From Patescibacteria group bacterium (GTDB lineage Bacteria > Patescibacteriota > Minisyncoccia > Phycocordibacterales > BOKC01), in the NCBI GenBank assembly GCA_038062955.1, contig JBBTWE010000001.1, positions 554,271 to 618,270 of the forward strand: a stretch of DNA of 64,000 nucleotides, written 5' to 3'. The notes under the pieces are model-generated. The model did not search any database. It was not told where the DNA came from and saw nothing but the letters and a program-made list of their open reading frames with translations. The position numbers and the translations under genes are program-made. Position 1 is the stretch's first letter. Each line of letters starts with the position of its first letter. Below are positions 9,163 through 9,490 of the stretch, piece after piece.

Positions 9163-9301
9163 ATCCTGTAGTAGAATTTCAGGTTGCAAATAGTTAGAGT
9201 GGAAAATGTGTAAAAAATAATTTAATTTTATTATAGCAAAACCATCAATTTCGAGGATAGTTCTGAGCTTTGCGAGGAACGACCTGAAATTTCACTACGG
9301 G

Positions 9302-9490
9302 ATGAAAACAAATAAATCATTTACAAAAAGATTAAAGGTGACCAAAAATGGAAAGATTATGTCTAGAAAAGCTGGACAGAATCACTTTAACGCTAAAGAA
9401 AGACGTCGAAAACAATTGAACAAAAAACGACCTTTAGAAGTTAATTTTTCCAATAAATCAAAAAGCAGATTTTTGATTGGCACAAAATAA
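9302..9490 (+). CDS. rpmI: 50S ribosomal protein L35
   Basis: 62 aa, Lys/Arg-rich, located in the infC-rpmI-rplT order. Confidence 0.85.
   Translation: MKTNKSFTKRLKVTKNGKIMSRKAGQNHFNAKERRRKQLNKKRPLEVNFSNKSKSRFLIGTK

Follow-up and report, generated by a model that had tools for sequence, protein, structure and literature searches.

A 26-nt leader shared by two unrelated genes is the 3' end of an inverted-repeat element at start codons, probably a derivative of a mobile GIY-YIG cassette family of Parcubacteria/Paceibacterota

Two genes of a Patescibacteria genome, rpmI and a gene for a secreted protein, begin immediately after the same 26 nt. What is this shared leader, and is its presence in front of both genes more than chance? 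A sequence-only reading of the window (the whole stretch of DNA analysed here, 64,000 nt) had proposed a mobile or recruited 5'-UTR module acting as a promoter, a ribosome-binding-site substitute, or a protein- or RNA-binding site. Scanning the window with GGAACGACCTGAAATTTCACTACGGG gave two exact matches, at 9276-9301 (+) and 54365-54390 (-), and no others at up to three mismatches; 100 shuffled sequences gave 0 matches. ATG lies directly 3' of both copies, at 9302 for rpmI and at 54364-54362 for the secreted protein, and the reported identity ahead of two unrelated genes is exact at both sites. The minus-strand copy had been placed one nucleotide off, at 54366-54391, and the secreted-protein gene, itself genuine, had been given the end coordinate 54365 in place of 54364.

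The CTACTACGGG core, allowing one mismatch, has 8 matches in the window where 0.86 are expected. Those at 9165 (-), 31395 (-), 31449 (+), 36493 (+), 54467 (+) and 63291 (+) were assigned to one family, which bears out the earlier report of a recurring core at 31395/31449, 63290, 36493 and 54466. The matches at 52669 and 52757 lie inside a pilB-like ORF, look like chance and were not accepted as members. Each 26-mer pairs with an arm upstream of it, 9165-9184 in what we call element A and 54476-54457 in element B. The 26-mer is thus not a self-contained 5'-UTR module; it consists instead of a 3' terminal inverted repeat preceded by the 3' strand of a small inner hairpin, P2, to which its first 5 nt belong.

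The window holds three full elements, before rpmI (A), the secreted-protein gene (B) and a gene for an S2P-like protease (C), and two hairpin-only copies (Table 1). The full elements are inverted-repeat structures of 112-140 bp with arms of 20-24 bp and a closing stem of ~24 bp, and their interior reads, 5' to 3', as a variable AT-rich stretch, a semi-conserved AGGATA, P2, one G and the 3' arm. As RNA, element A (9165-9301, 137 nt) folds at -41.5 kcal/mol (z = -4.1) and element B (54476-54365, minus strand, 112 nt) at -43.6 kcal/mol (z = -7.3); the A and U of the rpmI start codon lengthen the stem of element A. Ahead of each 5' arm stands a second copy of the start of the gene. In element A the ATG of this left copy (9159-9161) overlaps the infC stop codon TGA (9160-9162), in element B the left copy lies 2 nt past the stop codon of the upstream ORF 54484-54828, and in element C a host -10 box (TACACT) lies 6 nt ahead of the left ATG. 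The core match at 36493 is part of the 5' arm of element C, whose inner arm half differs from that of A and B, and the true start of the protease gene, ATGGATTTC at 36363, adjoins this element.

Table 1. Positions of the elements, their parts and the adjoining genes in the window
Feature	Position	Strand	Remarks
Element A, left copy of the rpmI start (ATGAA) plus T	9159..9164	+	
Element A, 5' arm	9165..9184	+	CCTGTAGTAGAATTTCAGGT
Element A, variable AT-rich interior	9185..9253	+	differs between copies
Element A, AGGATA motif	9254..9259	+	semi-conserved, just 5' of P2
Element A, inner hairpin P2	9260..9280	+	GTTCT...GGAAC
Element A, 3' arm	9282..9301	+	ACCTGAAATTTCACTACGGG
rpmI (L35)	9302..9490	+	start adjoins 3' arm
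Arm-only hairpin	31393..31460	-	core 31395-31458, 22 bp perfect stem
S2P-like membrane protease	35752..36363	-	motif HELSHG; homologue at L033
Element C, third full element	36364..36508	-	second arm type
Element C, 3' arm	36384-36364	-	ATGCCATTTTTCACTAACGGG
Element C, 5' arm	36502-36483	-	CCCGTAGTAGAAAATGGCAT
Element C, left copy ATGGAT	36508-36503	-	
Secreted or membrane-anchored protein	53768..54364	-	true ATG 54364-54362 adjoins arm
Element B, 3' arm	54365..54384	-	26-mer = 54365-54390
Element B, AGGATA (54414-54409) and P2 hairpin (54408-54386)	54386..54414	-	
Element B, 5' arm	54457..54476	-	CCCGTAGTAGAATTTCAGGT
Element B, left copy ATGA plus T	54477..54481	-	
Degenerate arm-only hairpin	63230..63306	+	core 63236-63300

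The two hairpin-only copies, 64-65 bp long, lie upstream of both tuf promoters. The first is flanked by TTGAC repeats and stands directly upstream of the tuf -35 box TTGACT (31393-31388); the second is flanked by GTTGAC repeats, and stands directly upstream of the -35 box TTGACT (63302-63307) that belongs to a second tuf-like promoter with its 5'UTR. Both of these consensus promoters serve paralogous loci with homologous 5'UTRs, the first being tuf. The long hairpins described earlier at 31395/31449 and 63290 are arm-only copies of the same element family.

We then asked how far the family extends, using search patterns for a genome collection and for metagenomes that consisted of the arm sequence only, with no ATG. 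The genome-collection scan found paired arms ~115 nt apart in many Parcubacteria/Paceibacterota MAGs, among them GW2011_GWA2_49_9, Taylorbacteria and JAUSFR01 (at least 5 copies). Some bins labelled Saccharibacteria also carry paired arms, at loci orthologous to those of Parcubacteria, and other phyla gave single-arm matches as expected by chance. The metagenome scan, which required both arms, added 30 further loci (collected loci are referred to below by L numbers). The combined set comprises 44 distinct arm-type-1 copies and, over all arm types and sizes, 55 elements, which fall into classes of 64-72 nt (3), 112-140 nt (45) and 312-342 nt (7); as the searches needed well-conserved arms, decayed or differently placed copies are under-sampled in these counts. 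The viral contigs searched held no copies. Rfam models scored at the gathering threshold over the whole window hit only tmRNA and tRNAs, models reported at E <= 10 over 9120-9340 gave nothing credible, and a literature search found no published description of the element.

Although the patterns were free of ATG, ATG or GTG follows the 3' arm at once in ~41/44 type-1 copies, so that the 3' arm adjoins gene starts. The start codon lies 2 nt past the 3' arm in 2/44 (L041 and L043), the gene side of L070 is ambiguous, and over all collected elements the AUG is 2 or 13 nt from the arm in a few copies (L041, L043, L109, L112 and L086). The downstream genes are genuine ORFs, unrelated in function and in many cases housekeeping: dnaN, gyrA (twice), ribonucleotide reductase (nrd), glyA, recA, rplU, rpsB, rplI, rpmI, pilT, pilB, def, and genes for sugar transferases and membrane proteins. 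On the other side, a second start codon stands 1-4 nt ahead of the 5' arm in 44/44 type-1 copies, and essentially all copies are flanked by a direct repeat formed by the first 3-7 nt of the gene, mostly 5-6. This repeat, which starts with the start codon itself, varies in length and matches the particular gene in each case (ATGGAA/ATGGAA, ATGCAA/ATGCAA, ATGGGT/ATGGGT, ATGAG/ATGAG, GTGTA/GTGTA). CGGG is invariably followed by R-T, and CCCG is preceded by A/G-Y.

Elements of 312-342 bp share the outer 15 nt of the short forms (CCCGTAGTAGAATTT ... AAATTTCACTACGGG) and enclose an ORF for a 90-aa GIY-YIG (UPF0213/Slx1-like) protein. The example at L053:3477-3788 is 312 bp long, has an identical counterpart on L068 and carries its ORF on the strand of the host gene. 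The product matches PF01541 (E = 4e-19), UPF0213 proteins and SLX1 are its nearest relatives of solved structure, and it has 787 homologues at E <= 1e-10 which, where named, belong to Paceibacterota/Patescibacteria. Of the homologue clusters sampled, 7/7 are bracketed by the arms and 6/7 have the start-codon repeat; the bracketed ORF starts 3 nt past the 5' arm, and its stop codon falls at the start of the 3' arm. That all seven clusters are bracketed, with the ORF fitted between the arms, argues for a single co-evolving unit. On L053 the GIY-YIG copy has an ORF-less one 600 bp away. The 64 kb window has no GIY-YIG gene, and the window copies would therefore need the nuclease in trans.

These long forms bear directly on a more conventional reading, in which the elements are MITEs or REPINs moved by an unseen transposase (DDE or Y1/RAYT) and the GIY-YIG ORF is a passenger or an invader of the palindrome. 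Such a reading accommodates elements that are small and numerous and have inverted repeats and flanking direct repeats, as well as the GTAG at the arm tip, as in REP, and the existence of arm-only hairpins. We regard it as unlikely, given the bracketing and fit of the GIY-YIG ORFs, the variable length of the repeat and the lack of any transposase-sized insert between arms in ~0.8 Mb of collected loci (arm spacing of 0.4-3 kb); the partners that share the outer 15 nt encode a GIY-YIG nuclease and not a known transposase.

Several comparisons between lineages indicate that the elements move. Shared arms enclose no fewer than 55 distinct elements across many Parcubacteria assemblies. The interiors of L051 and L072 are nearly identical although the two stand at different genes, and the repeat of each agrees with the gene beside it. 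The elements at gyrA, pilT, the S2P protease and a sugar transferase differ in interior or arm type among lineages. L044 has two tandem elements at one start codon. The junction between infC and rpmI, variable even among close relatives, exists in at least four states: a type-1 element (the window), a tandem pair belonging to other arm types, each member after ATGAAT (L115), no intact element (L081, L083 and L116), and a plain, empty spacer of 55 nt (L084). The sequence-only view that the repeat is mobile and not a product of chance is thus upheld, and the turnover across loci identifies gene starts as recurrent landing sites. The presence/absence polymorphism at rpmI is set in flanks that are otherwise not identical; no clean filled/empty pair was found at infC-rpmI, and since the spacers of the relatives differ upstream too, an exact duplication cannot be read off. 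The L081 spacer may hold decayed arm remnants (TTCAGG ... CCTGAATTCCCTAGAG), a weak likeness.

Taken together, we think it probable that the window elements are ORF-less, MITE-like members of a mobile GIY-YIG cassette family of Parcubacteria/Paceibacterota (CPR). In the mechanism that we propose, a putative GIY-YIG protein would drive the spread of the elements, in trans for the window copies, and the junctions would form via short stretches of homology at the start codon. Such joining appears to account for the varying length of the repeat, and for the R-T and A-Y ends, better than a fixed staggered cut does. A repeat of 3-7 nt is, on the other hand, unlike the fixed-length duplication left by a classical transposase, a point against this reading.

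If the arms were no more than the ends of a selfish element, how strongly would their pairing be maintained? Pairing in the 26-pair stem reaches 86% over 50 distinct elements, as against 27-44% in slid controls. Twelve stem pairs change on both sides, with 63 double-change cells compared with 18.2 +/- 3.9 in shuffles, and the flanking pair covaries, being U-A in 40 copies and C-G in 9. The outer 15 nt of the arms are invariant in sequence and the inner halves vary by subfamily (TTTCAGGT, TTTTGGTT, TTTTGACT, TTTCAATT, AAAATGGCAT) with complementarity kept. In 49/50 copies the ~24 bp helix has an A.C mismatch beside a G.U pair at its centre. P2, too, is paired in 167/185 cells compared with 121.7 +/- 4.5 in shuffles (maximum 142 in 2000) while its sequence varies. 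These data show selection for pairing, with RNA on the one hand and single-stranded DNA or a cruciform on the other not separable. Arms that are nearly invariant across divergent lineages, together with a covarying P2, suggest a host- or RNA-level function beyond selfishness. It is possible that the arms are a binding site for a protein or an RNase.

Inverted repeats of 20-24 bp just upstream of genes, with a consensus across loci, could also be the sites of a recombinase that flips the interior and so turns the gene on or off, and the TAG/TGA asymmetry of the arms is indeed swapped relative to the gene in L011, L013 and L050. We consider such an inverton highly improbable. The interiors are too diverged in similarity to orient the copies, but P2 and AGGATA are gene-proximal in ~43/44 copies, only L070 looking reversed, and the interior orientation is thus essentially fixed; there is no positioned internal promoter, the long versions carry an ORF, and no recombinase was seen nearby.

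How are genes expressed whose first codon abuts such a hairpin? An SD-like motif is present in only 4/62 window genes. Upstream of start codons, TANNNT hexamers are most frequent at a spacing of 6 nt (11 window genes), which is a signature of leaderless mRNA. A good host -10 box (TATAAT, TAGAAT or TATACT) lies 6-10 nt ahead of the left copy in ~24/44 type-1 elements and is kept between diverged orthologous loci (L057/L061, L011/L064/L067 and L018/L066), and at rpmI and L100 the left ATG keeps an ATGA overlap with the upstream stop codon. We infer that transcription or translational coupling still reaches the left copy and that the element is transcribed within the host mRNA.

As a recruited 5'-UTR or promoter module, the element would supply a promoter, a ribosome-binding-site substitute or a regulator site and be kept for co-regulation. 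The almost invariant arms, the conserved AGGATA and P2 beside the 3' arm, the palindrome TGAAATTTCA within the arm and the AT-rich interiors with their many TATAAT-like hexamers are what such a module might contain. The internal -10-like hexamers, however, have no preferred position and show no positional peak relative to P2, a consensus promoter scan inside the elements gave one candidate, in element B only, and the recognisable -10 lies in host DNA; the promoter idea of the sequence-only reading is accordingly not borne out. Its suggestion that ACGGG substitutes for an SD fares no better, with zero spacing to the AUG, base pairing of the motif within the stem and the scarcity of SD-like motifs in the window. 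AGGA was likewise rejected as an SD, lying ~45 nt upstream of the AUG in a genome that hardly uses SD. The downstream genes have no common function, the same junction is empty or holds other arm types in close relatives, and longer members with these arms have a nuclease ORF in place of a regulatory interior. For these reasons we judge a regulatory module improbable.

Returning to the mobile-cassette reading, transcription would start at or near the left AUG from the host promoter and run through the element, and the arms would pair into a stem of ~24 bp that loops out the insert and leaves the true AUG at its base. Two bases of the real AUG, the first and second, would be buried in this stem, which would therefore have to be opened or removed. 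RNase III or a similar dsRNA nuclease could cut the stem, giving a very short leader and a translatable host ORF; the same cleavage would part the nuclease ORF from the host ORF. Among the candidate steps that would allow translation we favour this RNase III-type processing. Correia-element inverted-repeat hairpins in mRNA are cleaved by RNase III (PMC10969869). In length the helix here just suffices as a substrate, and its central defect is conserved, as might suit the enzyme; a mid-stem cut would, however, leave a non-SD leader of ~10 nt that could still anneal to the 5' fragment, and processing does not require the AUG to abut the stem base so strictly. Alternatively, ribosomes translating from the left AUG might unfold the stem, a view with which the unconstrained uORFs sit poorly.

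In another reading, ribosomes would be handed over, by a shunt or bypass, from the left AUG across the hairpin base to the identical AUG beyond it. They could load by 5'-end binding on a leaderless mRNA or by termination-reinitiation at the ATGA overlap, and such a hand-over would be compatible with a mobile element. Matched copies of AUG, often with codon 2, flank the stem in 44/44 type-1 elements, 1-4 nt from its base on the left and 0 nt on the right. The left start codon is kept through GTG/ATG changes at orthologous loci (L011, L064, L050 and L067), and the conserved host -10 and the ATGA overlaps described above are also as hand-over would have them. The real AUG has neither an SD nor the A-rich context typical of other window genes. 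Interior ATG, GTG and TTG are not depleted (ATG z = -1.2), which is in line with hand-over and counts against linear scanning; scanning or reinitiation was rejected on this ground. A precedent is T4 gene 60/mobA, where a bypass signal and a homing-endonuclease cassette are coupled (10.1101/2022.08.31.505936). Known bypasses, however, span 27-55 nt and the gap here is 112-342 nt; no consistent stop or slow codon follows the left AUG, the frame and length of the uORF vary freely, in a few copies 2 or 13 nt separate the AUG from the arm, and the direct repeat may equally be an insertion scar. A conserved leader peptide from the left ATG was also rejected, its length ranging from 3 to 32 codons in varying frames with no bias relative to the gene. 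We therefore hold hand-over to be unlikely. The stronger version, in which the hairpin would act as a 'translational intron' and ribosomes would skip 112-342 nt, even an entire nuclease gene, to reach the real AUG, is a sequence-based conjecture that we think improbable. Were it true, elements could colonise the first codon of dnaN, gyrA, recA and ribosomal-protein genes and the host would survive.

The element was also compared with known systems. The window copies have the attributes of MITEs, namely terminal inverted repeats, a length under ~300 bp, no ORF and multiple copies. The Correia/NEMIS elements of Neisseria are similar in being ORF-less, multicopy and 100-150 bp long with terminal inverted repeats of ~26 bp, and in lying typically just upstream of genes with which they are co-transcribed. 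They differ in duplicating TA and in carrying defined promoters and an IHF site, where the present element has ATG-type repeats and no positioned internal promoter; the arm sequences are unrelated, and the ORF-bearing relatives of our element encode GIY-YIG proteins and not a transposase. Membership was rejected, there being neither a TA duplication nor the Correia consensus.

REP/REPIN sequences resemble the element as short palindromic repeats with GTAG near the tip, hairpin doublets and ORF-less, hairpin-only intergenic copies. Unlike them, the element has single arms that are not palindromic, a placement tied to gene starts and -35 boxes, and flanking repeats. A REP/REPIN-RAYT assignment was rejected, the arms not being palindromic units and the collected loci having no Y1/RAYT-sized insert between arms. 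The termini, CCCGTAGT ... ACTACGGG, are not the RYYYAAC ... GTTRRRY core sites of integron attC, which was rejected as well. By the features tested, the element is outside the Correia, REP/REPIN, attC, inverton and Rfam families.

The long form invites comparison with the seg/mob GIY-YIG and HNH cassettes of phage T4, in which a small selfish nuclease ORF lies between essential genes or at their edge, co-oriented with them and transcribed by the host. Only the long members have the GIY-YIG domain of a homing-endonuclease cassette, and their nuclease, unlike those of the T4 cassettes, is a catalytic domain of 90 aa with no DNA-binding domain. The element also differs from phage cassettes in residing in cellular CPR genomes (none in the viral contigs searched), in its long-range hairpin of 24 bp, in its abundant ORF-less derivatives and in standing at a start codon and not inside an ORF. 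In gene 60, matched take-off and landing codons with a stem-loop make an insertion tolerable, a likeness to the element, but bypass of the T4 gene 60 or yeast byps type was rejected for want of a consistent stop, for the variable uORF frame and for a gap of 112-342 nt against ~55 nt. On this analysis the element may be said to act like a Correia-type MITE and, in its long form, as a free-standing homing-endonuclease cassette does.

The intervening sequences (IVS) of 23S rRNA are inserts of ~100-150 nt, located in helices 25 and 45, whose paired ends form a long stem and some of which hold a small ORF; RNase III excises them, and the function of the host RNA is unharmed. They are a second precedent, beside the Correia hairpins, for the processing proposed above. 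The element differs in that its host is the 5' end of an mRNA, where excision is a proposal.

If the mobile-cassette reading holds, it would give a role to the widespread single-domain GIY-YIG (UPF0213/Slx1-like) proteins of Patescibacteria, which would be the ORFs of hairpin-bracketed selfish cassettes with abundant ORF-less derivatives. The elements would sit, with a duplicated start codon, at the first codon of genes that are essential and in many cases leaderless, in genomes where SD sites are hardly used. Whether expression is maintained by dsRNA processing to a near-leaderless mRNA, by unfolding through uORF translation or by ribosome hand-over, they would serve as a naturally replicated system in which to test non-SD and leaderless initiation in bacteria of the CPR, a group that to our knowledge is not yet amenable to genetic study. 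The elements also mislead gene callers: starts are called inside the arms in 53768-54400 and 35752-36384, and the NYN gene at L100 is affected in the same way.

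Repeated insertion at one start codon is the apparent history of two loci collected from other assemblies (L115:596-760 and L044:3480-3720), where two inverted-repeat elements of different arm types stand in tandem, each preceded by its own ATGAAT or ATGAGT copy. These arrays look like snapshots of repeated same-site insertion. In relatives that have no intact element (L081:950-1040 and L116:690-760), short tandem repeats (CCTAGAGCCTAGAGG / CCTAAAGCCTAGTG) lie immediately 5' of rpmI, and decayed arm remnants (TTCAGG ... CCTGAATTCCCTAGAG) may also be present at L081. The type-2 element ahead of pilB at L037:4190-4320 is an exception to the start-codon duplication rule: it has no left start-codon copy, and a TATAAC box directly adjoins its 5' arm.

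Duplication of a target's 5' end also extends to a tRNA gene. At L059:8990-9330 a more distant GIY-YIG ORF (39% identical), with a GC-rich hairpin on its 5' side, is inserted in a tRNA gene of which ∼21 nt of the 5' part are duplicated. This makes it a second example of a GIY-YIG cassette duplicating the 5' end of its target.

The 3' arm, which abuts the true start codon, also distorts gene annotation. Because the reading frame across it is open (..DLKFHYG-M..), proteins called from within the arm carry spurious N-terminal extensions. Mechanical ORF calls begin within the 3' arm at 53768-54400 and 35752-36384 of the window, as does the call at L100:1757-2335; one or more gene calls in public records likewise begin there.

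Two further 5' regions of the window, those of tuf and a tuf-like copy, are paralogous over ∼250 nt each. Both conserve a hairpin (TTAGAACTT..AAGTTC) and have an identical start region (TTGGCCAAATGTGAAAGTTATAACA); neither promoter/5'UTR region had a match in Rfam. A motif, (C/T)TGA(A/G)AGTTCTA(A/C), recurs 25-35 nt 5' of several start codons in the window and also makes up a perfect 19 bp inverted repeat flanking a 185-nt intergenic region (50368-50552). Its recurrence may reflect another repeat or operator family.

Coordinates of additional features in the window
Feature	Position	Strand	Remark
Paralogous promoter + 5'UTR region 1	31080-31400	-	precedes tuf (EF-Tu)
Paralogous promoter + 5'UTR region 2	63295-63640	+	precedes tuf-like copy running off window
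(C/T)TGA(A/G)AGTTCTA(A/C) sites	27890, 50580, 31270, 63450, 50368-50552, 22820		
tmRNA gene	1731-2127		tag peptide ANNLVAKAKSIVSPYFGNEKLAFVYA
tRNA genes	56318-58468		
Example genes	2227-2799, 26006-26491, 37016-37885, 54849-56114		Shine-Dalgarno scarcity/TATAAT-like boxes

The genome is nearly devoid of Shine-Dalgarno motifs, which precede 4 of the 62 window genes. Many genes have TATAAT-like boxes ending 6-7 nt 5' of the ATG, which implies that leaderless mRNAs are widespread in this CPR organism. A GC-rich island (7700-8650; ∼49% versus 39% overall) with long ORFs in all six frames separates infC from a membrane protein gene; the island's composition suggests foreign or non-coding DNA.
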